Source: a virus. From it: a stretch of 64,000 bases of DNA. The stretch covers positions 96,001 through 160,000 of the IMG/VR virus record IMGVR_UViG_3300027759_003534. One strand, given 5' to 3'. Position 1 is the first letter of the stretch; every line of letters begins with the position of its first letter. This document shows, piece after piece, positions 19,092 to 47,727 of the stretch. The position numbers were made by a program, and so were the translations under genes. The notes beneath the pieces are model-generated. The model saw nothing but the letters and a program-made list of their open reading frames with translations, was not told the DNA's origin and made no database searches.

Positions 19092-19397
19092 ATGAATACT
19101 GACGAACTTGTTGCCTACGCTCGTGCCCGTTTTGACCATGCAACCGCGCGACGCACACTTAAAGAAAAATATCAAGCCAAACTAACAGTTGCCCATGCTG
19201 GCGGAATGTGGTTAGCTGGTCCAGAATTATTGGCTGTATTGGCCGCTTGTGCAGGCCCATCAGCAGTTGTCCTTGACTTATATGACACGCCAGTGAAAGT
19301 AGTGCCTAACGAGTTTCAAGATTTAGTGCGTACTCACTGGCAAGAACAAATGAACGCTTGGCTTGTAGAATACGAAGAGCTTAATCAAAATAGATGA
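19092..19397 (+). CDS. Hypothetical protein
   Basis: 101-aa ORF coupled to the next gene by an ATGA overlap. Confidence 0.7.
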   Translation: MNTDELVAYARARFDHATARRTLKEKYQAKLTVAHAGGMWLAGPELLAVLAACAGPSAVVLDLYDTPVKVVPNEFQDLVRTHWQEQMNAWLVEYEELNQNR

Positions 19398-20149
19398 CAA
19401 CAGGTGCATTAATATTTGCCCGCAATAATGAGCAGATTAACTATGAGGCAATGGCTCACTGGTCGGCTAAGAATATTGAACGACATCTTGGTATCCCAAC
19501 ACACATTGTAACCGATGATTCTGCACCATCTACCAACACAAGACACTTTACAGATGTTGGCCCAGTTACATGGCACAATCTCAATCGCATGGATGCTTAT
19601 CAACTGAGTCCGTGGGATTGCACTCTAGTGCTAGATGCAGACTATGTTGTGGCTAGCGATCAGTTACAATCTGTGCTAGACATAGACCAAGATTTTTTAG
19701 CACATCGCTGGGCGTACGATATTACCGGCAACAACAACTTTGAAGGGCTTAATTACTTTGGAAACAATCGTATGCCCATGTGGTGGGCAACTGTAATGAT
19801 GTTTCGTCGCAGTCGACACGCAGAATTAATTTTTGACTCAATGCAGATGATCCGAGACAACTGGACTCATTATAGGAATTTGTATAAAAATACAAATGCA
19901 ACTTATCGTAACGACCATGCGCTTAGTATTGCCCTAGGCATAGTTAACGGGCATACATTAGATCATGCTGGTATTCCTTGGGCATTGGCCAGTTTAACAC
20001 CTGATCATAAATTAACACAGCTAGATCAAGACAGTTACAGAGTAGATTTTGTAAACACAGAAAATAACCTACGCTGGATAACATTAACACAAGACTTCCA
20101 CGCTATGGGCAAACAACAACTAGGAGAGATCGTTGCCAATCACTGCTGA
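19394..20149 (+). CDS. GT-A fold nucleotide-sugar transferase-like protein
   Basis: 'AYQLSPWDCTLVLDADYVV' carries a DxD motif; paralog of the next gene. Confidence 0.55.
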   Translation: MTTGALIFARNNEQINYEAMAHWSAKNIERHLGIPTHIVTDDSAPSTNTRHFTDVGPVTWHNLNRMDAYQLSPWDCTLVLDADYVVASDQLQSVLDIDQDFLAHRWAYDITGNNNFEGLNYFGNNRMPMWWATVMMFRRSRHAELIFDSMQMIRDNWTHYRNLYKNTNATYRNDHALSIALGIVNGHTLDHAGIPWALASLTPDHKLTQLDQDSYRVDFVNTENNLRWITLTQDFHAMGKQQLGEIVANHC

Positions 20150-20858
20150 ACGCGGTTACTTAATACCTGCAATTGGTGATGTATATGTAGGTTGCGCCAA
20201 CCGGTTAGCAGACAGCATACACCGCTTCCACCCCAACGCCAACGTAACTATTCTTACCAAGGACATGTTGCCCTATGGTGATCAAGGTGGTTACGCCAAC
20301 GACTGGCAAGTGTTTGTTGCTAGTCCCTACAGGCAAACTATTAAACTAGAAGCTGACATGATTTGTGCTAGCCCTATAGATCATTGGTGGCCGCTGTTTG
20401 AACGGCGTGATGTTGTTATTAGCCAAGGTGCTAGAACGTTTTATGATCAACCCGCGGTGTCACGCTACTACAGAAAAATATTTGATGCTAACAAGTTACC
20501 AGACGTTTACAATGCTATTACTTATTGGAGATTAAGTAACACAGCCAAAGAGTTTTTTAATTTAGTTAGACAAATATTTGAACAATGGGATAGCTATAAA
20601 CGAGTATTAAAGTTTCCAGATGATATGCCAACTACTGATGTAGTCTATGCTATTGCGGCAGTTATTATAGGTCCAGAAAACATTACATTGCCTTCTGGTC
20701 TAGGACCAACCATAGTACATATGAAACGCTACATTAACCCTACACAAAGTAACAATTGGACAAGAGAATTAGTCTGGGAAAACAATCCGTTTCGTATTAA
20801 TACAGTAGCACAGTGGGGATTGGTGCATTATCATATCAAGGAGTGGGCAAATGAGTAA
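20133..20858 (+). CDS. GT-A fold nucleotide-sugar transferase-like protein (paralog)
   Basis: 'FVASPYRQTIKLEADMIC' (ExD variant). TTG start is preceded by an AGGAG Shine-Dalgarno. Confidence 0.5.
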   Translation: MPITAERGYLIPAIGDVYVGCANRLADSIHRFHPNANVTILTKDMLPYGDQGGYANDWQVFVASPYRQTIKLEADMICASPIDHWWPLFERRDVVISQGARTFYDQPAVSRYYRKIFDANKLPDVYNAITYWRLSNTAKEFFNLVRQIFEQWDSYKRVLKFPDDMPTTDVVYAIAAVIIGPENITLPSGLGPTIVHMKRYINPTQSNNWTRELVWENNPFRINTVAQWGLVHYHIKEWANE

Positions 20859-21114
20859 AGACGAAGATAAATTTAAACACAGTAAAAGGCTACATAAAGA
20901 CCAGGCCACCATTGAGAAACAATTAAAGATTGCTAAAAGCCATGGCATGACTAATAAGGTTGTTGAAGAGCCACACCGTTTGGCCAAACATCATGCAATG
21001 GATTGTGGCGTTCCTCATTGTCCTATGTGTTCGAATCCAAGGCACAATAAAACAGTTAAAGATCATTTGACTATCCAAGAAAAACGCAATCTTCAAAAGG
21101 CCAAAGATGAGTGA
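20851..21114 (+). CDS. Small basic hypothetical protein with CxxxxCxxC
   Basis: 87 aa, K/H-rich, contains DCGVPHCPMCSNPR. Confidence 0.65.
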   Translation: MSKDEDKFKHSKRLHKDQATIEKQLKIAKSHGMTNKVVEEPHRLAKHHAMDCGVPHCPMCSNPRHNKTVKDHLTIQEKRNLQKAKDE

Positions 21115-21457
21115 TATGACTGAAGAAGAGTTTTGGTTGATCTTACATGCAACACCACAAACTAAGCAAGTATTTTATAGATTATATTACAACAAGGACG
21201 GCTCGCCTATTATCTACAGCATGGAGGACTTGCTAGGTAATTACATAGAAGTTGATCAATCGACATACGTGTTAGCGCCGTTTAATGTTAAGGTAATTGA
21301 CGGTAAACTTGTTTATATTAACCCAACGATTACTGTTAAAAAATTACAACCCACAAACTCAACCGGCACCGCATGCGACCCCCAAGATGTGTGCATAGTA
21401 GTCGATACAGATCAACCACATACAAAATGGAATATAGTAAACAATGAACTCAATTGA
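21107..21457 (+). CDS. Hypothetical protein
   Basis: 116-aa ORF overlapping both neighbours. Confidence 0.65.
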   Translation: MSDMTEEEFWLILHATPQTKQVFYRLYYNKDGSPIIYSMEDLLGNYIEVDQSTYVLAPFNVKVIDGKLVYINPTITVKKLQPTNSTGTACDPQDVCIVVDTDQPHTKWNIVNNELN

Positions 21458-22361
21458 TATAGCAGATTTAGACTGTGTATTTTTAACCTATGATGAACCC
21501 AACAAAGAAGAAACATGGGTTAAAATTAAGAATATGGTTCCTTGGGCCCGCCGTGTAGATGGAGTTAAGGGCAGTGATGCTGCACACAAGGCAGCCGCTG
21601 ATGCTAGTACTACAGATCGATTTGTGTTAATTGACGGAGACAATATTCCCGACGCTAAGTTTTTTAATCTTACCTTAGACACAAACGAGGTTTGTGTGTA
21701 TCGTTGGAGAGCCCGTAATCACATCAATGGGTTGATGTACGGTAATGGAGGCCTAAGCATATGGTCTAAGGAATTTGTATATGCTATGCGTACACACGAA
21801 GCAAGTGATGGCACTACCGAAAACGATGTAGAGTTTTGTTTTTATTCCAACTACTATGCTATGCACGATTGCTATAGTACAACATATCCAAACGGATCGG
21901 CCTTCCAGGCATGGAGGGCTGGCTTCCGCGAAGGTGTTAAGATGTGCTTAAACAAAGGTGCACGTCCTACCTTACAAGAATTTAAACAACGAGTACACCA
22001 ACGCAACTTAGATCATCTTACTATCTGGCACAACGTAGGGCGCGATGCGGATAACGGTATCTGGGCCATAGCCGGAAGTCGCATGGGCACATACATGACT
22101 ATGATTACTCCTCAGTGGGACTATCGTGCTGTACAAGATTTTATAGAGTTAGAAAAGTTATGGGACACAGTAAAGGATGACAATCCTGAAATGTTAGCAG
22201 GCCACGTAGGCGAGCCATTAGTAGAACAGCTAGATTTACCTATCAACATGATTGGCTCAGCCGAAAGCAAATTCTTTAAGCATCACTACCGCAGTAACTG
22301 GCACAACCAAGGAATAATGGTTAAAGAAATTGATGTAATAAGAAATCAGGAAGGCTGGTAA
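21444..22361 (+). CDS. Glycosyltransferase-like protein (GT-A)
   Basis: 'DCVFLTYDEPN', 'FVLIDGD' (DxD) and 'AWRAGFREGVKM'; homologous to the C-terminal domain of 40988-43393. Confidence 0.55.
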   Translation: MNSIDIADLDCVFLTYDEPNKEETWVKIKNMVPWARRVDGVKGSDAAHKAAADASTTDRFVLIDGDNIPDAKFFNLTLDTNEVCVYRWRARNHINGLMYGNGGLSIWSKEFVYAMRTHEASDGTTENDVEFCFYSNYYAMHDCYSTTYPNGSAFQAWRAGFREGVKMCLNKGARPTLQEFKQRVHQRNLDHLTIWHNVGRDADNGIWAIAGSRMGTYMTMITPQWDYRAVQDFIELEKLWDTVKDDNPEMLAGHVGEPLVEQLDLPINMIGSAESKFFKHHYRSNWHNQGIMVKEIDVIRNQEGW

Positions 22362-23062
22362 TGATTATTGCTTTTTATCCTGGCGCTGGCGGAAACAGGT
22401 ATTTACGCATGTTAAAAGAATTAAAATGGACTGACTCAAACACATCATATGATCGATTGGTTAGCGGTCAAGAATTCAAACACAGATATTTAACTGACGA
22501 TGTCAGCAACGGTGCTCAAGATTTTATCTTAACACATTGTTTAAATGAGCCACATATACGTTCAAAATTTCCTAACCACAACATTGTTTTTATACTTGGC
22601 AATTTTAAAAAATGTCTACAACGTGAGTGGATATTAGCTGGACATGAGAGATACATTCAAAAAAACATACAACATACCTATGACTATGATAGGATAGAGC
22701 ACTATAACGCATTTAAAGATAATTCGTGGCCAGCCTGTTTTACTATTAATGATATAGAAAATTTGCCAGTTTCTATTCTTAACGAGATTACTCAAGAGTT
22801 TAAAAAAATACAAAAAAGACAAAATGCCACTAACATGCTAGCTGACCTTGAAAACCGTATAATTGGTAAAGTGAACTCTGCATATGAAATTATATGTTGG
22901 CATAAAAATTATTATGATCAATATCCTTTGTTAATTTCAAATGAGTCTACAGTAATTGATATTAATTGTGATGAGGATATTTTTTCAAAAACAATGCAAA
23001 AAGAATTAGACTTCTACAACAGCGAAATATTTGATGAAGTGTGGAAGGAATTAAATGTCTAA
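22361..23062 (+). CDS. Hypothetical protein, possibly sulfotransferase/P-loop-like
   Basis: N-terminal 'IIAFYPGAGGN' Gly-rich loop; AT-rich DNA. Confidence 0.35.
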   Translation: MIIAFYPGAGGNRYLRMLKELKWTDSNTSYDRLVSGQEFKHRYLTDDVSNGAQDFILTHCLNEPHIRSKFPNHNIVFILGNFKKCLQREWILAGHERYIQKNIQHTYDYDRIEHYNAFKDNSWPACFTINDIENLPVSILNEITQEFKKIQKRQNATNMLADLENRIIGKVNSAYEIICWHKNYYDQYPLLISNESTVIDINCDEDIFSKTMQKELDFYNSEIFDEVWKELNV

Positions 23063-24086
23063 AGTAAACGCATTCAATGGGTTTGATAAGTTAACAGAAG
23101 TATGGTTAGGCGATGTTTATCCAACGGATTTTTATCAAGATTTTGATTCAGAAGTTCGAGATGCCTTTGAACAAATTACCGCGATGACTATTGAAGATCT
23201 TTCCAAGATACAAACAGTTTTAGAATCAAAAAATGTTAAGGTACAACGTCCTCAATTTAGTTCAAATCTTGAAAATTATCTCAACGATTCTGGAACTTTA
23301 ATAAAACCTCCAATAATGCCTAGAGACACTGAATTATCCTTGGGTAATACGTTCTATCATTTAAGATCTGATTACAAAATAGATCCTTGGCAAAAACAAA
23401 TTGATGCTATGCTAGACAATGGAGTAGACATAAAAGTTGGACCATCCGGAAATGATTTATCTTGTATACAGCCACCTAGTATAGTTCGTTGCGGCAATGA
23501 TCTTTATGTTGACATTGATTCGCATAAGCATGTGATGCCTCAAATCGCGTTAACTTTAATAGAATGGTCGAAACAGTATAGGGTTCACTTGATTTCTACA
23601 GGTGGACATAGCGATGGTGTATTCTGTCCAATTCGTGAAGGATTACTTATTACCACTCACTGGATAGACGATTACAAAAAAACATTTCCGGGATGGGAAG
23701 TATTTAAAATACCCCGGGAGCTTACTGGTATTGCTGGATCTTTACAGAATTGGTGGGTTCCGGAGATACAAATTTCGTCAAACAGTTTATTTGCAAAACA
23801 TATAGAAGAAAGAGCAATAGATTGGGTTGGAAATTATCAAGAAACGCAATTTAGTGTCAACATGCTGGTTGTTGATCATAATACAGTGATTGCCGTAAAT
23901 CAAAATCCTGTGTTGACTGAATTTTTAACCAAAAAAGGAATAGAAGTAATTATTGTTGATTTTAGATGTAAAGAATTTTGGGATGGTGGTATGCATTGCC
24001 TAACGTGTGATACTCAACGCAATGGCTTGATTAAAAATTATTTTCCAGAGCGCCCAGTTGCAAACTATTTAGATTGGATAAAATGA
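23055..24086 (+). CDS. Amidinotransferase (glycine / inosamine-phosphate amidinotransferase family)
   Basis: 'FDKLTEVWLG', 'PPIMPRD', 'GGHSDGVF' and C-terminal 'FWDGGMHCLT' match the family pattern with catalytic Asp/His/Cys. Confidence 0.75.
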   Translation: MSKVNAFNGFDKLTEVWLGDVYPTDFYQDFDSEVRDAFEQITAMTIEDLSKIQTVLESKNVKVQRPQFSSNLENYLNDSGTLIKPPIMPRDTELSLGNTFYHLRSDYKIDPWQKQIDAMLDNGVDIKVGPSGNDLSCIQPPSIVRCGNDLYVDIDSHKHVMPQIALTLIEWSKQYRVHLISTGGHSDGVFCPIREGLLITTHWIDDYKKTFPGWEVFKIPRELTGIAGSLQNWWVPEIQISSNSLFAKHIEERAIDWVGNYQETQFSVNMLVVDHNTVIAVNQNPVLTEFLTKKGIEVIIVDFRCKEFWDGGMHCLTCDTQRNGLIKNYFPERPVANYLDWIK

Positions 24087-25495
24087 ACAACAAAGGCGAC
24101 GAAAGTGTAAACAATAAAAGCAAGTTTCTCAGCGGTGCCGAGGAAATGCAAAATCTGCTTGGCCCAGCACTTTGTCTGGCCAAATGGAAACAGGTTAGTT
24201 TACATTTACCCACGGGCCTTAACAACAGTTGTTATCATCCTCCACTACACCCTATTCCCGCTGAGTTGTTGACTGATAATCCTGGTGCGCTACACAATAC
24301 TCCACACAAAAAAGAACAGCGCAAGATCATGTTACGGCAAGAACGCCCTAGCGAATGTAGTTATTGCTGGGCTATGGAGGACAATGACAAGTTAAGTGAT
24401 CGTCATTATCGCAGTGGTGAGCCATGGGCTGCCAAATACTTTGATATTATAACCAATTCAAATGGAGATGAAGATGTCATACCTAGTTATGTGGAAGTTA
24501 ACTTTAATCATGCTTGTAATTTGGCATGTAGTTACTGTAGTCCTCAATTTAGTTCAACTTGGCAACAAGAAATGGATCAGCATGGCGCTTACCCTACTAG
24601 CACTAGACACAACGATCCTAGTCATTTTGTTGGTCGCAATCGGCCTATCCCAGTTCGCGAGCATAATCCCTATGTAGAAGCTTTTTGGGCCTGGTGGCCT
24701 ACGCTTTATCCAGAACTAGAGCACTTTCGTATGACCGGTGGTGAGCCCATGTTGGACAAGAACACGTATAGAGTGTTTGATTATGTATTAGCCAACCCTA
24801 AACCCAACTTGCATTTAAACGTAACCAGTAATTTCAGTGTAGATGAAAAGACTTGGCAAAAGTATAAGGGATATGTAAAAGAATTATGCAAAGGTGAGCG
24901 GATTGAACACTTTATGCAGTTTGTTAGTCTGGACAGCTTCGGTGATCAAGCAGAATATATTAGACACGGCTTGGACTTTGATCTGCTGTGGGATCGTGTA
25001 AATCAATTCTTAACAGAGATACCTGGACGTAATTCAATTACCTTTATTGTGACTATGAATAATCTTAGTGTAACAGGATTACCGCACCTGTTTGCTGGCA
25101 TACTAGGCCTGCGTAAGTTATACAGCAAGACATATCAGCGTGTGTGGTTTGACACACCTGTGCTCAGACAACCCACATGGCAAAGCCTACAACTGCTACC
25201 AGAATCGTATGTGGATCAACTTGAACAACTTTGGGCTTGGATGATTCGTCAAATTGAAACAGAAGAAACTCGTTTCCACGGATTTAAAGACTACGAGATT
25301 GCTCGCTTGGACAGAGATATTGCCTGGATGCGTGATGGACAAAAGTTGGATCCTGCTGTGATCAATTGTAATAAAGCAGACTTCTATAGATTCTTTGCAG
25401 AAGCTGATCGCAGACACAGTACAAACTTCTTAAAAACTTTTCCAGAAATGACAGCTTGGTGGAAAGAATGCAAATATTATGCTAAACAATCATAA
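24083..25495 (+). CDS. Radical SAM protein with N-terminal twitch-like domain (copy 1)
   Basis: CNLACSYC (CxxxCxxC) and TGGEP; N-terminal CLAKW...SCYHP...CSYCW. ATG 24083 overlaps the upstream stop. Confidence 0.85.
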   Translation: MNNKGDESVNNKSKFLSGAEEMQNLLGPALCLAKWKQVSLHLPTGLNNSCYHPPLHPIPAELLTDNPGALHNTPHKKEQRKIMLRQERPSECSYCWAMEDNDKLSDRHYRSGEPWAAKYFDIITNSNGDEDVIPSYVEVNFNHACNLACSYCSPQFSSTWQQEMDQHGAYPTSTRHNDPSHFVGRNRPIPVREHNPYVEAFWAWWPTLYPELEHFRMTGGEPMLDKNTYRVFDYVLANPKPNLHLNVTSNFSVDEKTWQKYKGYVKELCKGERIEHFMQFVSLDSFGDQAEYIRHGLDFDLLWDRVNQFLTEIPGRNSITFIVTMNNLSVTGLPHLFAGILGLRKLYSKTYQRVWFDTPVLRQPTWQSLQLLPESYVDQLEQLWAWMIRQIETEETRFHGFKDYEIARLDRDIAWMRDGQKLDPAVINCNKADFYRFFAEADRRHSTNFLKTFPEMTAWWKECKYYAKQS

Positions 25496-26618
25496 AATTG
25501 TATTAAACAATTTTTGTGAAATTGATCGTCTTATCCGCCCATTTGCCGATGACGAGTTTTACGATTTAACCAAGCACACTATAGTACCAGGCGCCATATA
25601 CATAATTGGCCGAGAGCAATTTACAACTAACCGACAGCTTATTAAACAATTAGTTGATAGCGGTACTATACGAGCAGTATTATGTAATCCTGCCGAGGGG
25701 TCTGAGTCAATGTATTGGTTATATCAGACATTAGGAATAGGCAATTTTACCAAACATGCCGCTGTTATCACTGGCGGATATTTGCCCGATGGTATTCCGC
25801 ATATGTACCATGAACATTTTCTACCGTTGATATTAGATTACGATGAAAACATAAAAGCTATAGAAGATTATAAAAACAGAAAAACAACCGACCGCCCTTA
25901 CAAATTTTTATTTTTAAATGGTAGATTGCGTGTACACCGAAAATATCTATTAGAATATTTTAGATTAACTGGGTTGTTAGACCAAAGTCTCTGGACAAAT
26001 CTAGACCATAGAAATAGTCAGCCACCAAAACTAAAATTAGAACATAACGGACAAGATCTTATCAATAGTCCATTTCCTGTACACTATCTACCAGCCCAAT
26101 ATGAGATCGACCGTTATCAACAACAAGCAGTTAAAGTGCCAACAGAGTTATCGGGCGACCTGGCTGCCAAACGATATTTGTTTAACAACGAATGGGGCGA
26201 CATTTATATTGCACCCGCGCCTTACCTAGACACTTATTTTAGTTTAGTAACCGAAACAGTATTTGATTATCCGTATACATTTAGAACAGAAAAAATTTGG
26301 AAACCTATAGCAATTGGACATCCGTGGATTGCCGCTACTAACCGTGGCTATTATAGAGATATGCACAACCTAGGATTTAAAACTTTTGGACACCTAATTG
26401 ACGAAAGTTTTGATCAAATAGAAAATGGTCAAGATAGAATTGAGCGTATAACTCAAGTAGTGGAGGATCTTTGCCGGCAGGACCTTCCAGCTTTCTTAAC
26501 AGCAGCCAAAGATGTGTGTAAATACAATCAACAATTGCTTGCGGAGTTAAGGATTAAAGTCCGCAGTGAGTTTCCTGATCGTTTCCACCAATTTATTAAT
26601 CAACAATTCAATGCATGA
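25479..26618 (+). CDS. GT-B / GT10-like glycosyltransferase-like protein (copy 1)
   Basis: 'FSLVTET...RTEKIWKPIAIGHPWI...GFKTF..LIDESFD', shared with 38521-39732 and 39714-40985. Confidence 0.45.
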   Translation: MLNNHKIVLNNFCEIDRLIRPFADDEFYDLTKHTIVPGAIYIIGREQFTTNRQLIKQLVDSGTIRAVLCNPAEGSESMYWLYQTLGIGNFTKHAAVITGGYLPDGIPHMYHEHFLPLILDYDENIKAIEDYKNRKTTDRPYKFLFLNGRLRVHRKYLLEYFRLTGLLDQSLWTNLDHRNSQPPKLKLEHNGQDLINSPFPVHYLPAQYEIDRYQQQAVKVPTELSGDLAAKRYLFNNEWGDIYIAPAPYLDTYFSLVTETVFDYPYTFRTEKIWKPIAIGHPWIAATNRGYYRDMHNLGFKTFGHLIDESFDQIENGQDRIERITQVVEDLCRQDLPAFLTAAKDVCKYNQQLLAELRIKVRSEFPDRFHQFINQQFNA

Positions 26619-27942
26619 TTTAGAATTCAAACAACAAGTGTTAGACACAAAGAGTGCCAGCTTTTGTGCAGCCAAGTGGTATAATGCTACTATATGGTTA
26701 GGTTCAGGACAGACTACAAGTTGTCATCACCCACCCGCACACAAGATTGATCTAGAAGAATTAAAAACAAATCCAAAGGCATTACACAACACGGTAGAAA
26801 AGAAAATAGATCGATTGAACATGCAGTTGGGCAATCGTCCTAAGGGGTGTGAATATTGCTGGAAGATTGAAGACATGGGCCGCGATAGTATTAGCGACCG
26901 TGTATATAAAAGTAAAATTTACCCTATAAAGGCCCTAGATGAAGCATATCAAACTCCGCATCAAGCAGATGTCAATTTACGTACACTGGAAATTGCGTTC
27001 GATCGCACTTGCCAATTTGCTTGTAGCTATTGTAACCCTGCTTTCAGTAGCACATGGGTTAAAGACATACGATCCAACGGTCCCTATGAGTCCTTGGTGT
27101 CTGATGGGCGTAACCACTTTACTCACGATCACCCTAGCAGTCAACTATACCGCGTTGGCGAAACTAATCCCTATGTTGAAGCGTTCTTTGCTTGGTGGGA
27201 AACGGATCTTCACCGGACTCTTCAAGAGCTGAGGATCACTGGTGGTGAACCCTTAATGAGTGGCGAAACCTGGAAGCTGTTGGATTGGTTTAAAACCAAT
27301 AAAGGTAAAAGCTCAACTCGGTTGGCCATCAACAGTAACTTGGGTGCAAAAGTGGATTTAGATCGTTTGCTAGACAGCATAGAAGGATTAGAAGTAGATA
27401 TCTATACTAGTCAAGAAAGCGTATACAATCAAGCTGAATACATTCGAGATGGATTAGATTATGATGCTTGGATATCCAATGTTCAAAAGTTACTAGACAG
27501 CGACTGTGTAAGAGCTGTACATTGCATGGCTACTATCAACGCATTATGCTTAGATAGTTTGACTAGCTTGCTGTATCAATTGCTAGAATTTAAACAAATG
27601 TACGGGCGTGAGCGAGTGAGTTTTACACTGAACATTTTGCGTTTTCCTAGTTTTCAAAGTCCATTGGTATTGCCTGACGACTTGCGCACACACTATAAAG
27701 ATCGATTACAAGACTTCCTGGATCGCAATCGCAACAATAAATTCATACACGAGCACGAGCTCAATCACATACAACGGTTGATTGATTATCTAGATGTGGT
27801 TAAGACCCCGCATTCGGATTCATTTGATATGCCTAAATTGTTAAATGATTTTAAACAGTTTCATACTCAATACGATCAGCGTCGTAACAAAAATTTTACC
27901 GCAACATTTCCTCAATTGGCAGACTGGTATAACACATTATGA
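26611..27942 (+). CDS. Radical SAM protein with N-terminal twitch-like domain (copy 2)
   Basis: CQFACSYC and TGGEP; N-terminal CAAKW...SCHHP...CEYCW. Start placed at ATG 26611 (MHDLEF). Confidence 0.85.
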   Translation: MHDLEFKQQVLDTKSASFCAAKWYNATIWLGSGQTTSCHHPPAHKIDLEELKTNPKALHNTVEKKIDRLNMQLGNRPKGCEYCWKIEDMGRDSISDRVYKSKIYPIKALDEAYQTPHQADVNLRTLEIAFDRTCQFACSYCNPAFSSTWVKDIRSNGPYESLVSDGRNHFTHDHPSSQLYRVGETNPYVEAFFAWWETDLHRTLQELRITGGEPLMSGETWKLLDWFKTNKGKSSTRLAINSNLGAKVDLDRLLDSIEGLEVDIYTSQESVYNQAEYIRDGLDYDAWISNVQKLLDSDCVRAVHCMATINALCLDSLTSLLYQLLEFKQMYGRERVSFTLNILRFPSFQSPLVLPDDLRTHYKDRLQDFLDRNRNNKFIHEHELNHIQRLIDYLDVVKTPHSDSFDMPKLLNDFKQFHTQYDQRRNKNFTATFPQLADWYNTL

Positions 27943-29630
27943 ATTTAGATGATAAAATTATTGAACTTAAAACAGCGTACAACGTAATTGACGTGGTAAA
28001 TTTGGACCAGTGGAGTAACAGTATTAATGAAGGCAAAAACTGGCTCGAGCACACCTGTCGCCGTCTGCACAAGGATCCGTACAAAAACAATGAGCGTATT
28101 GTTTTTACACACTCGGCAGATTTTTACACAGAAGATGATTTAACAACAGCTGGGATTATACTTAGAAACTTACAAGTTATTTTAAATTCAGTTGATATAT
28201 CAAACTTTTTTGTTATTGTTGTATCAACCAATAACAATATAGCAGAAGAGTGGAACATTATAAATGAACTAAGCAAAGACCCGGTGCCATTGGCAGTTGA
28301 AATTGTCGATGGAAAATTTACTCAAAACATTATAAAAGATTATTCAAAACGCCAGGAAACTTATAAATATGGGTCAGTCGATCCTGTAAAAATACGATTA
28401 GACGAGCTTACAACTCAAGAAAAATTTTTACTTACAGAAAGTAAAACCTTCTGTATCTACCCCTGGATACATCTACATGCTTATCCAACTGGGGAGGCAT
28501 ATCCTTGTTGTCATGCTGAAATGGCGTATCCGGTAGGCAATACAAAATTTAAAACCCTTGAAGAAATATATCGTGATGCGCCCATGCGTGAGCTAAGAAA
28601 GGACATGCTGGCCGAGCAACCAAACCCTGCATGCGGTCGTTGTTACGAGCAGGAGGAAGCAGGTTTCTTCAGCGGTCGCCGGAGTGCCAACAAGCACCAT
28701 GGACACCATGTCAAACGTATCGATGATGATCAGTTTCAAATGAGCTACTGGGATATTCGTTTCAGTAACTTATGCAACCTAAGTTGCCGTAGTTGTGGGC
28801 ATATATTCAGCTCTAGCTGGTATCAAGATCAGGCCAAGTTGGCTGGTGGTGATTGGAAAGATCGCAACCAAGTGTTAAACTATGCAGGCCGTACAGAGAC
28901 AGACATGTGGGAACAGTTGATTCCGCATCTGGACTATGTAGAGCAAATTTACTTTGCTGGCGGCGAACCCTTAATGATGAAGGAACACTACAACATTTTA
29001 GATGAACTGGAACGTCGTGGGCGGTTTGATGTCAGACTGATATATAATACTAACTTTACACATGTCAAGCTGAAGGATCGCACAGTATTTGATTATTGGA
29101 AACGCTTTAAAAGTGTAGCGGTAGGAGCCAGTTTAGATGCTATGGGCCCACGTGCAGAGTATATACGAAAAGGCACTGAATGGGACCAAGTAGAACGCAA
29201 TCGTGCGCAAATGCTAGAAATATGCCCCAATATAGACTTTTATATAAGCCCTACACTAAGCATAATGAATGCACTACACCTACCAGAGTTTCACCGCAAC
29301 TGGGTTGACAAAGGATTTATTAAACCGCAAGACTTGAATGTGAATATTTTGCAAGACCCAACGCATTTCAGAATAGACATAGCACCTGTTGAATATAAGC
29401 AACGTATACAAGTAGCATACGAAGAACACTTGGAATGGTTGCGCCCATTGGATTCACTACAGCGAGCAACTGTGGGGTTTGAGAGTGCTATCAACTTTTT
29501 GATGTCCACAGACAATTCTGCATTGTTACCTAAATTTTGGTCGGCGTCTGACAAATTAGATCACATTCGATCCGAAAGTTTATTAGACGTAGTTCCGGAA
29601 TTGACATTAATCGAACAATATAGACAATAA
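27939..29630 (+). CDS. Radical SAM / twitch protein with extra N-terminal domain (copy 3)
   Basis: CNLSCRSC and AGGEP; FCIYPW...YPCC...CGRCY; about 165-aa N-terminal extension. Confidence 0.85.
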   Translation: MNLDDKIIELKTAYNVIDVVNLDQWSNSINEGKNWLEHTCRRLHKDPYKNNERIVFTHSADFYTEDDLTTAGIILRNLQVILNSVDISNFFVIVVSTNNNIAEEWNIINELSKDPVPLAVEIVDGKFTQNIIKDYSKRQETYKYGSVDPVKIRLDELTTQEKFLLTESKTFCIYPWIHLHAYPTGEAYPCCHAEMAYPVGNTKFKTLEEIYRDAPMRELRKDMLAEQPNPACGRCYEQEEAGFFSGRRSANKHHGHHVKRIDDDQFQMSYWDIRFSNLCNLSCRSCGHIFSSSWYQDQAKLAGGDWKDRNQVLNYAGRTETDMWEQLIPHLDYVEQIYFAGGEPLMMKEHYNILDELERRGRFDVRLIYNTNFTHVKLKDRTVFDYWKRFKSVAVGASLDAMGPRAEYIRKGTEWDQVERNRAQMLEICPNIDFYISPTLSIMNALHLPEFHRNWVDKGFIKPQDLNVNILQDPTHFRIDIAPVEYKQRIQVAYEEHLEWLRPLDSLQRATVGFESAINFLMSTDNSALLPKFWSASDKLDHIRSESLLDVVPELTLIEQYRQ

Positions 29631-29632
29631 TC

Positions 29633-30961
29633 ATGACTGATAAAATTATAGGCAAATACAACTGGCAAGATCGAATTCCCAGTTACATTCCGTTAGAACA
29701 GCTAACCGACATTCAACGGCATAGACTAATGGAAAGTAAAACTTTTTGCATGTTACCTTGGATACACTTACATGCATGGCCCGATGGCCGCGCTTATCCG
29801 TGTTGTTTAGGCAATGCTCGACATCCTGTGGGTAACTTTAAAGAAAAATCCATGAAGGAAATTTGGAACGACGACGCCATGCGGCAAATGCGAGTCAACA
29901 TGCTCAATGATCAGCCTTGCAAGGAATGTAGTGACTGCTACGAGCAAGAAGAGTACGGCTTCGCTAGTATGCGCAACAACAGCAACAAAAACTTTGGACA
30001 GCACGTTGCCGAAGTAGAAGATACATTGCCCGACGGTTCCACGCCAAACTTTCAATTGCACTACTGGGATGTGCGCTTTAGTAATATATGCCAGCTCAAG
30101 TGCCGTAGTTGTGGCAGTATCTTTAGCAGTCGTTGGTATGATGATGATGTCAAGTTATGGGGTAAAGAACTGCGCCCACGTGTGCAGTTTGCTGGTCGTC
30201 ATGAAAATGATGTATGGGAACAGATGCAAGAACATGTTCCGCACCTGGACCAAATATATTTTGCCGGCGGCGAACCCTTGATCATGGAAGAACATGCACG
30301 TATATTAAAGCTGCTGATAGAAAAAGGTAATACCAATGTTCGCTTGATTTACAATACCAATTTGAATGAATTGCGTTATAAACGAGAATCAGTACTGGAT
30401 CTATGGAAACATTTCCCCAATGTGTGCGTGGCTGCCAGTTTGGACGACATGGGAGCTCGTGCTGAAATCATACGGTCAGGCACAAACTGGGCTCAAGTAG
30501 AACAAAACATTAGAGATTTAAAGCGTGAGTGTCCGCATATAGACTTCATGATCAGCCCTACACTCAGCATGATGAACATCTGGAACTTTACTAGATTCCA
30601 CCGTTACATGGTTGATCAAGGATTTATACGAGCCCAAGACTTTAACTTGAACATATTACAAGGTCCCCAAGAATATCGTATAGATATGTTGCCAACTGAT
30701 ATCAAACAACAGTTCAAGCGAGAGTTTGAAGAACACATCCGTTGGTTAGAGCCGATCGACGGAATACAACGTGCCACTGGTGGATTCCGTGGAGCTATTG
30801 AGTTTATGATGGCCACTGACAACAGCCATTTGTTACAGGGATTTTGGGAAACTGTCAATGATCTGGATTGGAGCCGTAGTGAAAGTTTATTGAGTGTGGT
30901 TCCAGAGTTGGCGGCCATTGTCCAATATCGCCCCAAAGATAAAAGGATACCCCTTAAGTGA
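29633..30961 (+). CDS. Radical SAM / twitch protein (copy 4)
   Basis: CQLKCRSC and AGGEP; FCMLPW...YPCC...CSDCY. Confidence 0.85.
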   Translation: MTDKIIGKYNWQDRIPSYIPLEQLTDIQRHRLMESKTFCMLPWIHLHAWPDGRAYPCCLGNARHPVGNFKEKSMKEIWNDDAMRQMRVNMLNDQPCKECSDCYEQEEYGFASMRNNSNKNFGQHVAEVEDTLPDGSTPNFQLHYWDVRFSNICQLKCRSCGSIFSSRWYDDDVKLWGKELRPRVQFAGRHENDVWEQMQEHVPHLDQIYFAGGEPLIMEEHARILKLLIEKGNTNVRLIYNTNLNELRYKRESVLDLWKHFPNVCVAASLDDMGARAEIIRSGTNWAQVEQNIRDLKRECPHIDFMISPTLSMMNIWNFTRFHRYMVDQGFIRAQDFNLNILQGPQEYRIDMLPTDIKQQFKREFEEHIRWLEPIDGIQRATGGFRGAIEFMMATDNSHLLQGFWETVNDLDWSRSESLLSVVPELAAIVQYRPKDKRIPLK

Positions 30962-32181
30962 CATTACCACACGATAAATTCTGCGTACTACCTTGGATTA
31001 GTTTAGAAACTAGTCCCGTAGGTACTGTACGTCCTTGTTGTCTAGCTGAAGACGAACTGGTAGACAATGCTGGAGATAAGTTTAATCTAGCCACGGCTGA
31101 GTTTAGTACTATACAAAACAGCCACGGTATGCGTCGGTTGCGTCAAGAGTTCATTGACCGGAAACAGCCACAAACATGCCGCAAGTGCTGGAGAGAAGAA
31201 CGTGCAGGCCGCACTAGTAAACGTATGCATACCTTAGATCGTTTAAAGCACATGTTGGATCACGTAACAGACTGGACCGTAGACGCCAAGCCCTTGATGT
31301 TTTTAGATCTCAAGCTGGGTAACATATGTAACTTAAAATGCCGCATATGCGGATCATGGAGTTCAAGTACATTTGCCGCAGAGGAACTGGCCAATCTAGA
31401 ACCCACGGAAGATCGTAAAACAAATCATCATTATCAAATGCTACGTCAAGGCGCTTGGCCCAGAGAAAATCTCAAGTTTTGGTCGGAGATAGCTCAGGTA
31501 AGCGATCAAATTGAGTATATAGAGTTTACCGGCGGTGAACCCTTTATGATACAAGAACACTTTGACCTGTTGCAGGACCTGGTAGATCGTGACCTAGCCC
31601 AGAACATAGAAATACACTACAACACCAATGGTACACAATACCCTGAGCAAGGCCCTGAGATATGGCGCCACTTTCAGCATGTAGAAATAGCCGTCAGCAT
31701 AGACGATGTGGGTGATAGATTTGAATATCAACGCTCAAATGCTCTTTGGGCAGAAGTAGAAGCCAATATAGCCCGTTTTAAAACTCTACGTAGCCAACAT
31801 TCTAATATGACTCTACAGGTATGTAGCACAGTGAATGTGTTTAACGTGTATTACTTGCCAGAACTGGCCAAATGGAATTATGCACAAGGATTTGACTATG
31901 TGTATTGGAACATGATGCACGAAGCCTACTACTTTAGCGTCAGCACATTGCCCGAAGCCGCAAAAGCAGATATTACTGCAAAACTACGCACCGGCAAGAG
32001 CGACGTTGCGCAAGAATTTGAACGTATCATTAACTTTATGAACAACGGTGCCAGCCTGGATGGGAAACTGTTAAGAATGAAAATAGCTGATCTGGATCGC
32101 AAACGTGGTCAAGACTTGAGAACTGTAGAGCCAGAATTTGCTGAATTAATAGGATACAATGGACCCAATGGCAACATCTGA
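30958..32181 (+). CDS. Radical SAM / twitch protein (copy 5)
   Basis: CNLKCRIC and TGGEP; FCVLPW...RPCC...CRKCW; GTG start overlaps the upstream stop. Confidence 0.85.
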   Translation: MTLPHDKFCVLPWISLETSPVGTVRPCCLAEDELVDNAGDKFNLATAEFSTIQNSHGMRRLRQEFIDRKQPQTCRKCWREERAGRTSKRMHTLDRLKHMLDHVTDWTVDAKPLMFLDLKLGNICNLKCRICGSWSSSTFAAEELANLEPTEDRKTNHHYQMLRQGAWPRENLKFWSEIAQVSDQIEYIEFTGGEPFMIQEHFDLLQDLVDRDLAQNIEIHYNTNGTQYPEQGPEIWRHFQHVEIAVSIDDVGDRFEYQRSNALWAEVEANIARFKTLRSQHSNMTLQVCSTVNVFNVYYLPELAKWNYAQGFDYVYWNMMHEAYYFSVSTLPEAAKADITAKLRTGKSDVAQEFERIINFMNNGASLDGKLLRMKIADLDRKRGQDLRTVEPEFAELIGYNGPNGNI

Positions 32182-33463
32182 TCGACTGTGTTTAGCACCC
32201 TGGGTCCATACATATCTTAGTCCACAAACCGAAAGGCGCATGTGCTGTGCCAGCAGAGAACCTGCACAGGCATTTGAACAGTATATAGATACTGTTGCAG
32301 GCACAGGTACATACCACCCTACAACATTAGAAGCACACTGGAACGGCGATCACATGCGCAGTGTAAGACGGCGCATGATGGCCGACGAAACTTTACCTGA
32401 ATGCGCTGTGTGCAATGAACAACTGCTTAATACCGACGTGTACCGTAGCTACTTTAACCGTATGTTTGGGCACTTACGCAATGACATTTATGCTAAAACA
32501 GATGATACAGGGTCAACTACTATGCAACCTGTATCATGGGATTATCGCTTCAGTAACCTATGTAACTTTAAGTGCCGTACGTGCGGGGATATGTTAAGTA
32601 GTAGTTGGGAGTCAGAACAACGTGCTAACAACATGATCAACTGGTCTAACCCAAAGAATAACTGGATGCTTCCAGAAGTACGTGAAGAAATAACTCGGTT
32701 TCAAGACAGTCAAATTGAGCAAGAGTTTAGTCAAGCAGTAGAAGAACACCGTGTAGAAGAAGTATATTGGGTAGGCGGCGAACCTTTGATGTATGAACAG
32801 CACTGGCGCTATATGCGTCGCATAATTGAATTAGGAGATGGACCACGTGTTTACGCAAGATATAATACTAACCTTAGTCGGGTTAATTATAGGGGTATTG
32901 GGTTGTATACTGATATTCTTGCCCATATTCGTGATTGGCAAATCTGCGCCAGCCTCGACGGAACAGGACCAACAGGAGAATACATCAGAACGGGATTGGA
33001 CTATGTGGATTGGCTAGCTAACTTTAAACAAGGGTTAGAACTAGCACAAACACGTAGACAAATGCGTATAGACTTTACGCTAACATTACCTGGCTTGTTC
33101 GAAGTTCATAATATCCAACAATTAGCTGAAGAGCTTGATGTAGACATTTTAGCCAAAGTAGTATTCAGCTTCTCCCCAGATATCATTATGAGCCCACTTG
33201 CACTACCCAGAAAGTTATTAGACAAGACCGTGGATCGTATAATAACTCAACTACCCAACGGTGCTTTACGAGATGTATTACTACAGTTAAAACGTAGGCC
33301 CGTGTTTACCGAACAATGGAACCACGGCGAAGCCGCAGCGCAAATTGCAGTAGGAAAAAAACGTATATTACAGTTAGAACAAATCCGCGGAGACACATTG
33401 ACTTTACAAACAATATTAAATCAAGACCCAGAAATAGGAGCATGGTATGACAGCATTGCTTGA
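32159..33463 (+). CDS. Radical SAM / twitch protein (copy 6)
   Basis: CNFKCRTC and VGGEP; LCLAPW...RMCC...CAVC. Confidence 0.85.
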   Translation: MDPMATSDRLCLAPWVHTYLSPQTERRMCCASREPAQAFEQYIDTVAGTGTYHPTTLEAHWNGDHMRSVRRRMMADETLPECAVCNEQLLNTDVYRSYFNRMFGHLRNDIYAKTDDTGSTTMQPVSWDYRFSNLCNFKCRTCGDMLSSSWESEQRANNMINWSNPKNNWMLPEVREEITRFQDSQIEQEFSQAVEEHRVEEVYWVGGEPLMYEQHWRYMRRIIELGDGPRVYARYNTNLSRVNYRGIGLYTDILAHIRDWQICASLDGTGPTGEYIRTGLDYVDWLANFKQGLELAQTRRQMRIDFTLTLPGLFEVHNIQQLAEELDVDILAKVVFSFSPDIIMSPLALPRKLLDKTVDRIITQLPNGALRDVLLQLKRRPVFTEQWNHGEAAAQIAVGKKRILQLEQIRGDTLTLQTILNQDPEIGAWYDSIA

Positions 33464-34478
33464 TCAAATAGAGTTGGACTTAGAAGATCTCACTGTGTAC
33501 ATTGATGTTTACGATAACAGTCTAGCACGTCGTTGGTTAACTGCTTTAAATGCAGTATTAATCAATAACTTGCATCTTGAAAAAAACTACTGCTTTTTAG
33601 GTTTTGCAGAAGGGCCGCGCCAGGGTGAATTACTCATTGCAGAGATTAATCGCAGTATCAGTGCAATTAATGCCAGTGCTGTAGACTATGCAATAGATCA
33701 TACCTTTACATTGGCTCAAAGCGTAGACTCAGAGGGTGGAGTTAATCACTCAGAGTTTAATCTACTACATCGTTACTTTGAAGACTTACAGGGCACTGCT
33801 AGTAGCCCTAGTCCTTTGTATGCAACCGCTGATTCTACCACACGCTGGCATATACGTCAGTTAAACTTACTATGTCACGAGTTTGAATCTTGGCAACTTA
33901 GTTGGCGCAAGCTACACACAGCACCAGAATGGATGCGTCCCAGCCAACTCATGTGTTGGCTAAATGCTCCACGCTACACACTGGACCGAGAAGATTTTGA
34001 GCTGTTTGGCGTAGACACCATTAACAGAAGCTTGGGTGGTGTGTATGCAGGTGTTAACAAGGCCGTGGGCAAGCACCATTGGGAAGTGTTCCAGGATGAA
34101 GGGCGCGACAGTAGGATAGGTGAATTAACCACAACCAGCTTGGCCGCACAAACCTTGGCCTGTGCAGACTTTGATATAGAATGGGCCAACAATCCTGGCG
34201 CATATCATTGGCAGATAACGCGGTTAAAACAGTTCCGTGAATGGTTAACTGCAAACGGCTGGAACCCAGAAGATCCCGCCCTTACTATAGGACATCCCAA
34301 GATTGGTCAAGTTGACTTGCGGCGTAGTTTTGGTACAGAAGATTATTGCGAAATCTGGGCTCAGTTAAATACTCGTTTAAATGTGTCAGCCGTACGTACT
34401 AGTACAGCACAAGCTGTTTACCCGTATTCATGGACTGATGCAGACTATGCTCAACAACAAATAAAGGAACTCAAATGA
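33447..34478 (+). CDS. Hypothetical protein
   Basis: 343-aa ORF overlapping the last radical SAM gene; no motif recognised. Confidence 0.7.
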   Translation: MTALLDQIELDLEDLTVYIDVYDNSLARRWLTALNAVLINNLHLEKNYCFLGFAEGPRQGELLIAEINRSISAINASAVDYAIDHTFTLAQSVDSEGGVNHSEFNLLHRYFEDLQGTASSPSPLYATADSTTRWHIRQLNLLCHEFESWQLSWRKLHTAPEWMRPSQLMCWLNAPRYTLDREDFELFGVDTINRSLGGVYAGVNKAVGKHHWEVFQDEGRDSRIGELTTTSLAAQTLACADFDIEWANNPGAYHWQITRLKQFREWLTANGWNPEDPALTIGHPKIGQVDLRRSFGTEDYCEIWAQLNTRLNVSAVRTSTAQAVYPYSWTDADYAQQQIKELK

Positions 34479-34576
34479 ACTGGATTCGTAACATATACAA
34501 CCAAATTAAACTAGAGATACGCTATCGTAAGAAGCTGAAAGAACTGCGCAAGAGAGACCCGTTTATATACAAATGA
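34475..34576 (+). CDS. 33-aa basic peptide (not in ORF track)
   Basis: MNWIRNIYNQIKLEIRYRKKLKELRKRDPFIYK*, with ATGA overlaps to both the upstream gene and the carbamoyltransferase. Confidence 0.7.
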   Translation: MNWIRNIYNQIKLEIRYRKKLKELRKRDPFIYK

Positions 34577-36045
34577 AACTGGCACCCAATCAATATATCT
34601 TGGGCATCAGTGCAGGCTACCACGATGCGGCTGCTGCAGTAGTTGATGTACAGGGCAATGTAGTGTTTGCTGCTCACAGTGAACGTTATAGTAAATGTAA
34701 GAATGATCCTAACATTGCCAGTGGCCTACTAGCAGAACTGTGTGACTACCAGTATGCCACAGTGGCCTACTACGAGCGTCCGTGGTTACATAACCTACAA
34801 CAGTTGTATTCAGGACAACGCATACTAGGACCGTGGACCACCCGCGGCGCATTACAACAGCATCTAGGTGCCTGGTATCACAAGCCTGCAGATCGTGAAG
34901 TCAGCTACCCACATCATTTAAGCCATGCAGCTGCAGGATTCCAAACCAGTCCGTTTGAACGTGCCACAGTAGTAGTAATAGATGCTGTAGGCGAGTTAGA
35001 TACCGTGAGCATATATGGCGCTGAGTATGACCGACAGGGTCGTGCCGTATATAAAAGACTTTGGGTACAACGTTACCCACGTAGCATAGGCCTGTTTTAC
35101 AGTGCTGTTACGCAACGTGTTGGACTTGACCCCATGCATGAAGAGTACATAACCATGGGCATGGCTGCATATGGCGAACCCTGCTATGTGGAAGAGCTTA
35201 GAGCCCTACTAGACGAGAACTTACATGTGGGTTTAGACCCAGAGTTCTTGCCCAATGCCAAAGATACAGATATCGCTGCCAGTGCCCAGGTGCTTGCAGA
35301 ACAATTGATATATAACATAATGCGTCGTGCTAGAGATTTCAAGTGGAGTACTAACTTGGTCTATCAGGGCGGTGTTGCACTCAACTGTTTGGCCAATAGA
35401 AACTTAGGTGATTACTTTGAAAACGTTTGGATTATGCCTTGCCCTGGCGACGCTGGCTCTAGCCTTGGCGCTGCTGCCTTGGCCTACGGAAAGCAACTTT
35501 GCTGGAACAACGCATTCCTTGGTCAAGAAATCGCTGGAGACTATCCCGTTGATGCCATCTGTGATAGCTTACAGCATGATAGAATCTGCGGTGTCGCTAG
35601 CGGTCGGGCAGAGTTTGGACCCAGAGCTCTTGGAAATAGAAGCCTACTGGCAGACCCCCGCGGACCAGATATAAAGGAGTTAGTAAATCGAATCAAACGT
35701 AGACAACAGTTTAGACCCTTTGCACCAGTCATTTTGGAGGAGCATGTGGATCAGTATTTTGACTTGCCAGGTGGTTGGGTTGACAGTAGGTATATGCAGA
35801 TCGTTGGTCGTTGTAGGCATCCTGACCTATTTCCTGCTGTTACCCATGTTGATGGCACCAGTCGCGTACAGACTGTACCGGCGGATGGATCAGGAATCAG
35901 ATGTTTACTAGAAGCCTGGTATGCTAGAACAGGATGTCCCATGCTGTTGAACACCAGTCTTAACATACGTGGCGAACCCATGGTCAACGACCGTGCAGAT
36001 GCTGATCGTTTTGAACAACTGTACGGTATAAGGGTACACAGTTAG
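34573..36045 (+). CDS. Carbamoyltransferase, NodU/CmcH (TobZ-like) family
   Basis: 'ILGISAGYHDAAA', 'HHLSHAA', 'IDAVGE', 'EFGPRALGNRSLLADPR', 'FRPFAP', 'LLNTSLNIRGEP'. Confidence 0.92.
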   Translation: MKLAPNQYILGISAGYHDAAAAVVDVQGNVVFAAHSERYSKCKNDPNIASGLLAELCDYQYATVAYYERPWLHNLQQLYSGQRILGPWTTRGALQQHLGAWYHKPADREVSYPHHLSHAAAGFQTSPFERATVVVIDAVGELDTVSIYGAEYDRQGRAVYKRLWVQRYPRSIGLFYSAVTQRVGLDPMHEEYITMGMAAYGEPCYVEELRALLDENLHVGLDPEFLPNAKDTDIAASAQVLAEQLIYNIMRRARDFKWSTNLVYQGGVALNCLANRNLGDYFENVWIMPCPGDAGSSLGAAALAYGKQLCWNNAFLGQEIAGDYPVDAICDSLQHDRICGVASGRAEFGPRALGNRSLLADPRGPDIKELVNRIKRRQQFRPFAPVILEEHVDQYFDLPGGWVDSRYMQIVGRCRHPDLFPAVTHVDGTSRVQTVPADGSGIRCLLEAWYARTGCPMLLNTSLNIRGEPMVNDRADADRFEQLYGIRVHS

Positions 36046-47491: not shown

Positions 47492-47727
47492 TTGCCCCAC
47501 CGTAGTAAGTATTCTGTGGCTAATTGATCTTCTACTAGACCGTACACAATGATTTTGTGTCCCCAGTTGTGTTCATCGGCTCGTACAATGTATTGTGGGT
47601 CTGAACAGTTTTTCATCGCCCACTGACCTTGTTCTGTTTGTTGCCACTCATATAATGGTTGTGCGACATAGAGTTCTGGATCCTCTACATCGCCCATACT
47701 AAAAGAATGGAATGTAATTTTTTGCAC
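47488..47727 (-). CDS. Small protein, possible outlying member of the 54660-56844 paralog family
   Basis: Ends ATEYLLRWGK. Confidence 0.65.
   Translation of the reverse strand: MQKITFHSFSMGDVEDPELYVAQPLYEWQQTEQGQWAMKNCSDPQYIVRADEHNWGHKIIVYGLVEDQLATEYLLRWGK

Follow-up and report, generated by a model that had tools for sequence, protein, structure and literature searches.

The DNA analysed here, which we call the window and which comes from an uncultured lake phage, spans 64,000 nucleotides (positions 96001-160000) of the 182,566-bp IMG/VR virus record IMGVR_UViG_3300027759_003534, with an estimated completeness of 49%, and carries seven paralogous radical S-adenosylmethionine (SAM) genes, named R1 to R7. 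Baseplate and fibre genes identified by PHROG matches indicate a T4-like giant phage, and its close relatives are complete genomes of 337-344 kb with terminal repeats. Judged by alignment, phylogeny and substitution rates, the seven copies are an old, non-redundant set under purifying selection, located in a cassette of conserved gene order and surrounded by genes for sugar enzymes. With moderate confidence, we propose that each encodes a radical enzyme with a distinct tailoring role in a sugar or glycan pathway.

Seven radical SAM copies and their domain order

Family membership was tested with the full-length hidden Markov model (HMM) of NCBIfam NF033640 (N_Twi_rSAM) at its curated cut-off of 170 bits. 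All seven copies matched the model end to end, with scores between 274 and 406 bits (Table 1), and by this measure the proteins themselves belong to a catalogued family. The model and the alignment also confirmed the description given in the initial annotation, namely six genes within 9.4 kb and a seventh farther on, each with an N-terminal Cys cluster followed by CX3CX2C and GGEP motifs. In the numbering of R4, the residues C39, W43, C58, C99 and C102, the motif C153-x3-C157-x2-C160, the doublet S165 S166 and the stretch G212 G213 E214 P215 were invariant in all seven copies; seven Cys were thereby invariant, four of them N-terminal and three from CX3CX2C, and a Trp downstream of the SS doublet was nearly invariant in the family at large. 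CX3CX2C, GGE and all four Cys of the N-terminus were kept in 576 of the 585 family open reading frames (ORFs) from the window, the phage loci and the bacterial loci, most of the nine exceptions being ORFs truncated at locus ends. The two subtypes that had been proposed, C-x-x-KW...SC-x-HP in R1 and R2 and C-x-x-(P/A)W...CC in R3 to R7, were both visible in the alignment.

The inverted architecture attributed to these proteins, with a twitch/SPASM-like domain at the N-terminus, was borne out by Pfam and by the alignment. Full-length SPASM matches (PF13186) were located N-terminal to Radical_SAM (PF04055) in R3 to R7, within residues 9-102 after any extension (residues 39-102 in R4, E 2.8e-13). 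R1 and R2 showed no PF13186 match, yet their four N-terminal Cys aligned with those of the other copies. A twitch domain is a shortened form of the SPASM domain with one auxiliary cluster (PMC9012708), and the auxiliary domain of the phage copies, with four conserved Cys only, is predicted from its sequence to hold a single cluster of this kind; however, it precedes the core in every copy, in contrast to the C-terminal extension that characterises the twitch subclass (BtrN, MoaA). This N-terminal placement is the distinguishing feature of the NF033640 family. This is also the N-terminal-twitch family to which the initial annotation referred; no function was found for it.

The six copies on the plus strand do stand in one row, as the term tandem array implied, but the row is broken by a gene outside the radical SAM superfamily, encoding the 379-aa protein X (25479-26618). 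Because the genes of the row overlap by 4-53 nt or sit 1-2 nt apart, they form one tightly packed operon. The true start of R2 is probably an internal ATG near 26611. The N-terminal extensions of R3 and R7 aligned with each other, and the R3 extension was recovered by search only in N_Twi-type proteins. In the whole 182.6-kb record, 11 copies exceed the cut-off, and there are also three further radical SAM genes and one frame interrupted by stops, so that the count in the window understates the expansion; three complete relatives (G001, G002, G003) hold 7, 11 and 10 copies above the cut-off. The interrupted N_Twi-like frame lies outside the window (9706-10593 of the record, minus strand), scores 133 bits and has one internal TGA and one TAG; it may be the only decaying copy.

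R5 was chosen for structural modelling, and its AlphaFold2 (AF2) model reached a predicted local distance difference test (pLDDT) value of 95.5. Its core was about equally near to viperin, SkfB, anSME, CteB, BlsE, ChlB and MoaA (VIA Z 11-12.6), the nearest of all being viperin, SkfB, anSME, CteB and BlsE, at Z 11.8-12.6. The modelled core is thus placed in the SPASM/twitch-viperin-MoaA part of the superfamily, a position that favours no substrate class. Foldseek against the PDB returned low TM-scores (0.3-0.4), which is probably due to the domain order. In a library of predicted viral structures, full-length matches at TM 0.7-0.85 were found to proteins of uncultured freshwater phages, along with a weaker match to a KVP40 protein (TM 0.59 normalised to the model, 0.72 normalised to the target). 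No solved structure of the NF033640 family came up in a profile search of the PDB.

Divergence, selection and gene order

Pairwise identity among the seven copies was 17-32%, with the exception of R3 and R4 (55%). A maximum-likelihood tree was built from 278 family members, comprising the 12 copies of the record, those of related phages and bacterial loci, and representatives of clusters at 50% identity. In this tree, every copy of the window fell in a clade of its own together with orthologues from other phages, and the clades of R1, R2 and R6 (support 0.96, 0.98 and 0.92) also took in genes of Bdellovibrionota arrays. The R2, R4 and R6 clades had members from a contig binned as Flavobacterium (L022) as well. 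R1 and R2 were sisters (support 0.99), as were R5 and R7 (0.97), and R3 joined R4 weakly (0.43). The R3 clade contained orthologues at 70-72% identity from phage contigs L017 and L020, in the rows of which an R3-type gene occupies the place of R4, and R4 had orthologues at 72-92% identity in 14 phage loci.

Low pairwise identity and the placement of the copies in the tree led us to reject a recent duplication in situ. Since Bdellovibrionota chromosomes and marine phage contigs have the same subfamilies occurring together, the paralogues predate the phage lineage, contrary to the duplication within this phage that the initial annotation implied; only R3 and R4 are comparatively close. Against orthologues of 71-92% identity, the rate of nonsynonymous substitution (dN) was 0.06-0.22 and that of synonymous substitution (dS) was saturated, giving dN/dS values of at most about 0.03-0.13 (0.04 for R1 and 0.07-0.09 for R2). 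Gene decay was rejected on the basis of these low values and the retention of motifs. The initial annotation had held that polyphyletic and decaying copies would speak against its reading: the copies are indeed polyphyletic, but with dN/dS of at most about 0.13 they are not decaying. Its suggestion of an assembly line of different steps agrees with what was found, as copies with their own orthologue groups, a fixed order over about 90 loci and dN/dS of 0.03-0.13 look non-redundant.

A set of 14 close viral loci and 76 further ones, the latter fetched via the family alignment, was compared for gene order, about 90 loci in total. The canonical order was fibre-like gene, u18, u19a, u19, u20, (u21a), u21, R1, (GT-B), R2, (R3 or R4), R5, (GT-B), R6, Y and carbamoyltransferase, followed on the opposite strand by an amidinotransferase and two GT-B genes. 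The R genes kept this order throughout, while the GT-B glycosyltransferase genes shifted position within the row. The 76 further loci carried between two and seven copies per ~21 kb, with a mode of five (48 of 76). The window is unusual in presenting R3 and R4 types side by side and in the additional R7, 12 kb off. Synteny with the fibre and radical SAM module was also observed in five contigs, some of them marine, labelled as Haliscomenobacter, Verrucomicrobia, Betaproteobacteria and Rickettsiales metagenome-assembled genomes (L017-L021); these are probably phage contigs binned into bacterial genomes.

Scanning IMG/VR with the family alignment detected at least 566 relatives of the query, and the family as a whole comprised 6845 clusters at 50% identity (E <= 1e-30), with many two- and three-domain fusions. 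In contrast, megablast of the array against 50,697 GenBank phage records gave no match, and tblastn with R4 against GenBank phage records recovered 3 records only, at 21-25% identity. A row of four distant N-twitch-like radical SAM genes was noted in Vibrio phage K566 (OZ196521.1), a cultured phage of the KVP40 type (L168, 5705-12441); these scored 106-172 bits against a family HMM built here, three being annotated as radical SAM domain proteins and one as hypothetical. The presence of distant members in cultured KVP40-type Vibrio phages makes the question experimentally approachable.

Outside phages, chromosomal arrays in Bdellovibrionota are genuine, being flanked by ordinary bacterial genes (Obg, polyphosphate kinase, PhoX). 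The largest, from Bacteriovoracaceae bacterium UBA6144, contained eight copies in 12 kb (L049, 6040-18036), and others (L023, L033, L053) had four or five. They had no other genes in common with the phage. Near them we found further radical SAM genes, GT2, carbamoyltransferase, methyltransferases and DegT. Single copies were scattered in Bacteroidota, Elusimicrobia, Acidobacteriota and other phyla, and beside these GT2 was the top neighbour family, with PhyH dioxygenases and other radical SAM genes next. The literature searched on NF033640, on N-terminal SPASM/twitch domains and on jumbo-phage radical SAM arrays yielded no relevant paper. The phage copies agree with NF033640 in the four-Cys domain at the N-terminus, CX3CX2C-x4-SS-x-W and GGEP, but the family definition does not include a fixed phage cassette of several paralogues; this cassette and its counterpart in predatory bacteria appear to be undescribed in the searchable literature.

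Sugar enzymes around the array and the readings of its function

The row is embedded among genes for sugar enzymes and conserved proteins, the coordinates of which are collected in Table 1.

Table 1. Radical SAM copies and neighbouring genes of the island, in window coordinates.
Feature	Position	Strand	Evidence or remark
Fibre-like protein, upstream edge of conserved module	16740-18020	+	Weak Pfam Peptidase_G2/IMC autocleavage match; PHROG virion and tail-fibre matches
u19, conserved gene	19394-20149	+	Precedes array
u20, conserved gene	20133-20858	+	Precedes array
u21a, conserved gene	21107-21457	+	Precedes array
u21, conserved gene	21444-22361	+	Precedes array
Amidinotransferase-family protein	23055-24086	+	Overlaps R1 start; PDB L-arginine:glycine amidinotransferase E 3.5e-8, then HsvA, SxtG, StrB1
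R1, N_Twi radical SAM, subtype C-x-x-KW...SC-x-HP	24074-25495 (ATG 24083)	+	NF033640 303 bits
X, GT-B-fold glycosyltransferase-like, 379 aa	25479-26618	+	Between R1 and R2; AF2 model pLDDT 89
R2, N_Twi radical SAM, subtype of R1	26566-27942	+	NF033640 294 bits
R3, N_Twi radical SAM, 165-aa N-terminal extension	27939-29630	+	NF033640 390 bits, residues 168-556
R4, N_Twi radical SAM	29633-30961	+	NF033640 406 bits, top family-model score
R5, N_Twi radical SAM	30958-32181	+	NF033640 342 bits; copy modelled
R6, N_Twi radical SAM	32159-33463	+	NF033640 274 bits
Y, conserved protein	33447-34478	+	Start overlaps R6 end by 17 nt
NodU/CmcH-type carbamoyltransferase	34573-36045	+	Pfam Carbam_trans_N E 9e-38, Carbam_trans_C E 1e-47; phrog_1601
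Second amidinotransferase-family gene	37494-38528	-	29% identity over 348 aa to 23055-24086, E 3e-38; both phrog_25854
X paralogue	38521-39732	-	BLASTP to X E 2e-9, C-terminal ~125-155 residues; to the other paralogue E 7e-13
X paralogue	39714-40985	-	BLASTP to X E 4e-8, C-terminal ~125-155 residues; to the other paralogue E 7e-13
DegT/DnrJ/EryC1 sugar aminotransferase	43350-44435	-	Pfam E 2.7e-55
NDP-sugar epimerase/dehydratase	44438-45397	-	Pfam E 3.7e-48
R7, N_Twi radical SAM, ~130-aa N-terminal extension	45914-47500 (ATG 47491)	-	NF033640 296 bits, residues 131-523

No sequence-family match was found for X, the model of which is predicted to have the two-Rossmann-domain GT-B fold. All 50 of its top 50 VIA matches were GT-B glycosyltransferases and covered residues 1-379 (best match, Z 13.2 over 271 residues, rmsd [root-mean-square deviation] 4.2), the T4 beta- and alpha-glucosyltransferases among them at Z 12.4 and 11.4, and its top Foldseek matches, which were weak, were nearly all glycosyltransferases too. 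The closest Atlas clusters were all viral, 3307 unannotated homologues were recovered, and the Atlas structure search tied X to a viral protein fused with an epimerase/dehydratase of nucleoside diphosphate (NDP) sugars. The two X paralogues were syntenic in phage loci; for the first of them (38521-39732), PDB, Pfam, NCBIfam and Atlas gave no meaningful lead. All the PDB matches of the amidinotransferase-family protein upstream of R1 were confined to its C-terminal ~65 residues (266-330). The carbamoyltransferase was present in 51 of the 76 further viral loci and adjoins some bacterial arrays. Farther out, the window also contains a cytidylyltransferase-like gene, a GT2 gene and a hexapeptide acyltransferase.

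In the scheme that we propose, the [4Fe-4S] cluster of CX3CX2C would cleave SAM, and a second [4Fe-4S] cluster would sit on the twitch-like domain ahead of the catalytic core, the four conserved Cys predicting one fully ligated auxiliary cluster, as in BtrN. BtrN has one auxiliary cluster, fully Cys-ligated, and is a sugar-type two-electron oxidase in which this cluster is thought to take an electron during the oxidation of the sugar-like substrate (PMC9012708). Each copy would catalyse a radical-initiated step of its own on sugar units, either in a nucleotide-sugar or in a growing glycan; by analogy with BtrN, NeoN, DesII and BlsE, candidate steps would start from C-H abstraction and bring about oxidation, epimerisation, deoxygenation or C-C chemistry. 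The GT-B transferases, amidinotransferases, carbamoyltransferase, aminotransferase and dehydratase/epimerase would build and decorate the sugar structure. The product would most likely be a glycan attached to a component of the virion or of the host surface, given that the cassette is always directly behind tail-fibre genes. What leads to sugar tailoring is that sugar enzymes surround the copies in phages and, independently, in bacterial chromosomes, together with the predicted BtrN-like cluster; from these we infer the class of substrate, the logic of one step per enzyme and the destination of the product.

Compared with BtrN, BlsE, DesII, NeoN and AprD4, the phage copies have in common the radical SAM core and one auxiliary [4Fe-4S] cluster on four Cys, which is predicted here, as well as a sugar- or aminoglycoside-type setting in which genes for an aminotransferase, amidinotransferase and carbamoyltransferase lie nearby. 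BlsE and DesII were also structural neighbours of R5 (Z 11.8 and 9.9). However, the auxiliary domain of the sugar enzymes is C-terminal, whereas that of the phage copies is N-terminal, and likeness in sequence is limited to the generic core (BlsE, E 1.5e-4 in the PDB sequence search); BtrN appeared neither in that search at E up to 1 nor among the 50 best VIA matches, an absence that still leaves room for a kinship. The island also resembles known virus glycosylation clusters, such as those of the Mimivirus fibril glycan, chlorovirus capsid glycosylation and the mycobacteriophage capsid glycosyltransferases, in that nucleotide-sugar enzymes and glycosyltransferases lie beside structural genes. 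None of those clusters is known to include a multi-gene radical SAM set.

Several observations weigh against sugar tailoring. NF033640 is a catalogue entry only, for which we found no substrate or tested member, and among the closest of the solved cores (Z about 12), maturases of peptides or proteins (SkfB, anSME, CteB, ChlB) are as well represented as enzymes acting on small molecules (viperin, BlsE, MoaA). The genes that accompany the array most constantly, u19, u20, u21 and Y, carry no recognisable function; DegT, in just 10 of the 76 further loci, leaves the conserved core without an aminotransferase; the enrichment of sugar genes near bacterial members is modest, GT2 accounting for 7 of 113 neighbours of the single-copy members; and no glycan acceptor was identified.

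Most characterised SPASM/twitch enzymes work on peptides or proteins, and an alternative that we consider unlikely is that the copies are maturases of the anSME, sactisynthase or SPASM/twitch RiPP (ribosomally synthesised and post-translationally modified peptide) type, each introducing a cross-link, an epimerisation or an oxidation of the formylglycine type into a phage protein. Y, u19-u21, the fibre-like protein or the giant protein of 4915 aa encoded upstream would be the candidate targets. SkfB, anSME, CteB, ChlB and SuiB are among the structural neighbours (cores at Z 10.4-12.4 for this group), and Pfam SPASM fits the Cys-rich domain; the array is always behind fibre genes and beside conserved proteins lacking an assigned function, and the start of Y overlaps the end of R6, the gene being present in 79 of the 90 viral loci. 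In these maturases, however, the order of domains is the reverse of that in the phage copies, which have Cys for one cluster in place of the seven-Cys, two-cluster SPASM motif, and neither an RRE (RiPP recognition element) domain, according to Pfam, nor a recognisable leader-peptide gene was found. There was no small ORF common to the phage and bacterial arrays, ORFs below 80 aa not having been searched systematically, and the listed neighbour families of bacterial members included no RiPP-type peptidase or exporter. Moreover, among the fetched bacterial loci, Y and u19-u21 occurred only in mis-binned phage contigs and not in the Bdellovibrionota arrays with the same R subfamilies.

Of the 76 further viral loci, 60-68 had homologues of the u19-u21 group, which also occurred in marine phage contigs; u19, u20, u21a and u21 had no Pfam or PDB sequence match, and u21 no meaningful lead in PDB, Pfam, NCBIfam or Atlas, although u21 resembles residues 576-731 of the ORF at 40988-43393. 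Y was detected in all 14 close and in 65 of the 76 further viral loci, almost always directly after R6, and in the loci from the genome collection only in phage contigs L017 and L020; it had no Pfam, NCBIfam, PDB or Atlas lead. The C-terminus of the fibre-like protein, which was syntenic in phage loci, is common to two large ORFs elsewhere in the genome.

The amidinotransferases bear on a different proposal, to which we assign a still lower probability, namely that the island makes a diffusible small molecule, aminoglycoside-like or a guanidino-sugar, acting on the host or on rival phages, with steps of radical SAM dehydrogenase, aminotransferase and amidinotransferase mirroring the streptidine or 2-deoxystreptamine pathways. 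Two genes of the amidinotransferase family, with StrB1 among the PDB matches, are present, as are DegT and a NodU/TobZ-type carbamoyltransferase, and BtrN, a twitch radical SAM enzyme, does the corresponding oxidation in butirosin synthesis (PMC9012708). Nevertheless, we recognised no cyclitol synthase, kinase, phosphatase or exporter, and both the amidinotransferases (about 20 of the 76 further loci) and DegT are accessory genes outside the conserved core, while three to four glycosyltransferases and the position next to fibre genes are more in keeping with a polymer or conjugate.

In a third alternative, sugar-type hypermodification of DNA, a GT-B enzyme would attach a sugar to a modified base for editing by the radical SAM enzymes. 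This reading has in its favour the T4 glucosyltransferases among the best matches of X, the T4-like nature of the phage and the ThyX gene within the window, but is very improbable, as the GT-B matches of X reflect the fold in general, arrays of the same R subfamilies exist in bacterial chromosomes, and no gene of the ThyA/dCMP-hydroxymethylase family (PF00303) was found in the record or in its three complete relatives, which leaves no acceptor of the T4 hydroxymethyl-pyrimidine kind. DNA glycosylation in the style of T4 was accordingly set aside as unlikely for these four records. A search with PF09198 gave no match in any genome, the controls included, and therefore carries no weight.

Returning to sugar tailoring, we also considered a more specific and speculative form of it, which we regard as rather unlikely: that sets of at least five N-twitch enzymes, in hundreds of aquatic giant phages and in Bdellovibrionota, might carry out serial radical C-H editing of an undescribed glycan or of a guanidino/carbamoyl sugar, the product being cationic and coating the virion or the cell-attack apparatus, or else an aminoglycoside-like compound made by the phage. 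If true, this C-H editing would constitute a new branch of carbohydrate radical chemistry. Finding the substrate would assign a chemistry to thousands of genes, would show the benefit to a phage of investing, during infection, so many Fe-S clusters in one cassette (a predicted two for each enzyme), and might bring to light a metabolite, or a glycan of the virion or host surface, with an influence on adsorption or competition; the fixed cassette is the most striking form of the family and is found in abundant freshwater and marine giant phages.

The cost in Fe-S clusters that had been pointed out for a phage is real; the complete relatives G001, G002 and G003 each hold two genes for A-type Fe-S carriers (PF01521; IscA/HesB-like), which fits a high Fe-S demand. 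No flavodoxin was found in these three genomes, and no A-type carrier gene within the 49%-complete record that holds the window.

Further open reading frames of the window

A single ORF of 4915 aa occupies positions 1192-15939 on the plus strand, directly after a baseplate-wedge-like gene (116-1195). Pfam found only CBM_5_12 and FG-GAP repeats in it, and it may encode a giant fibre or adhesin and be a possible glycan acceptor. On the minus strand, an ORF of 191 aa (45394-45969) overlapping the end of R7 had no family match and presents an HxD...H pattern (GIHIDT ... IPHDVW), which suggests a small cupin or an oxygenase of the 2-oxoglutarate type. Also on the minus strand, a DUF2201 metallopeptidase/VWA-like protein (51646-52938) and a MoxR-type AAA ATPase (56914-57999) are encoded a few kb apart. 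Finally, the ORF at 58355-59512 showed a very weak DarT-like match.

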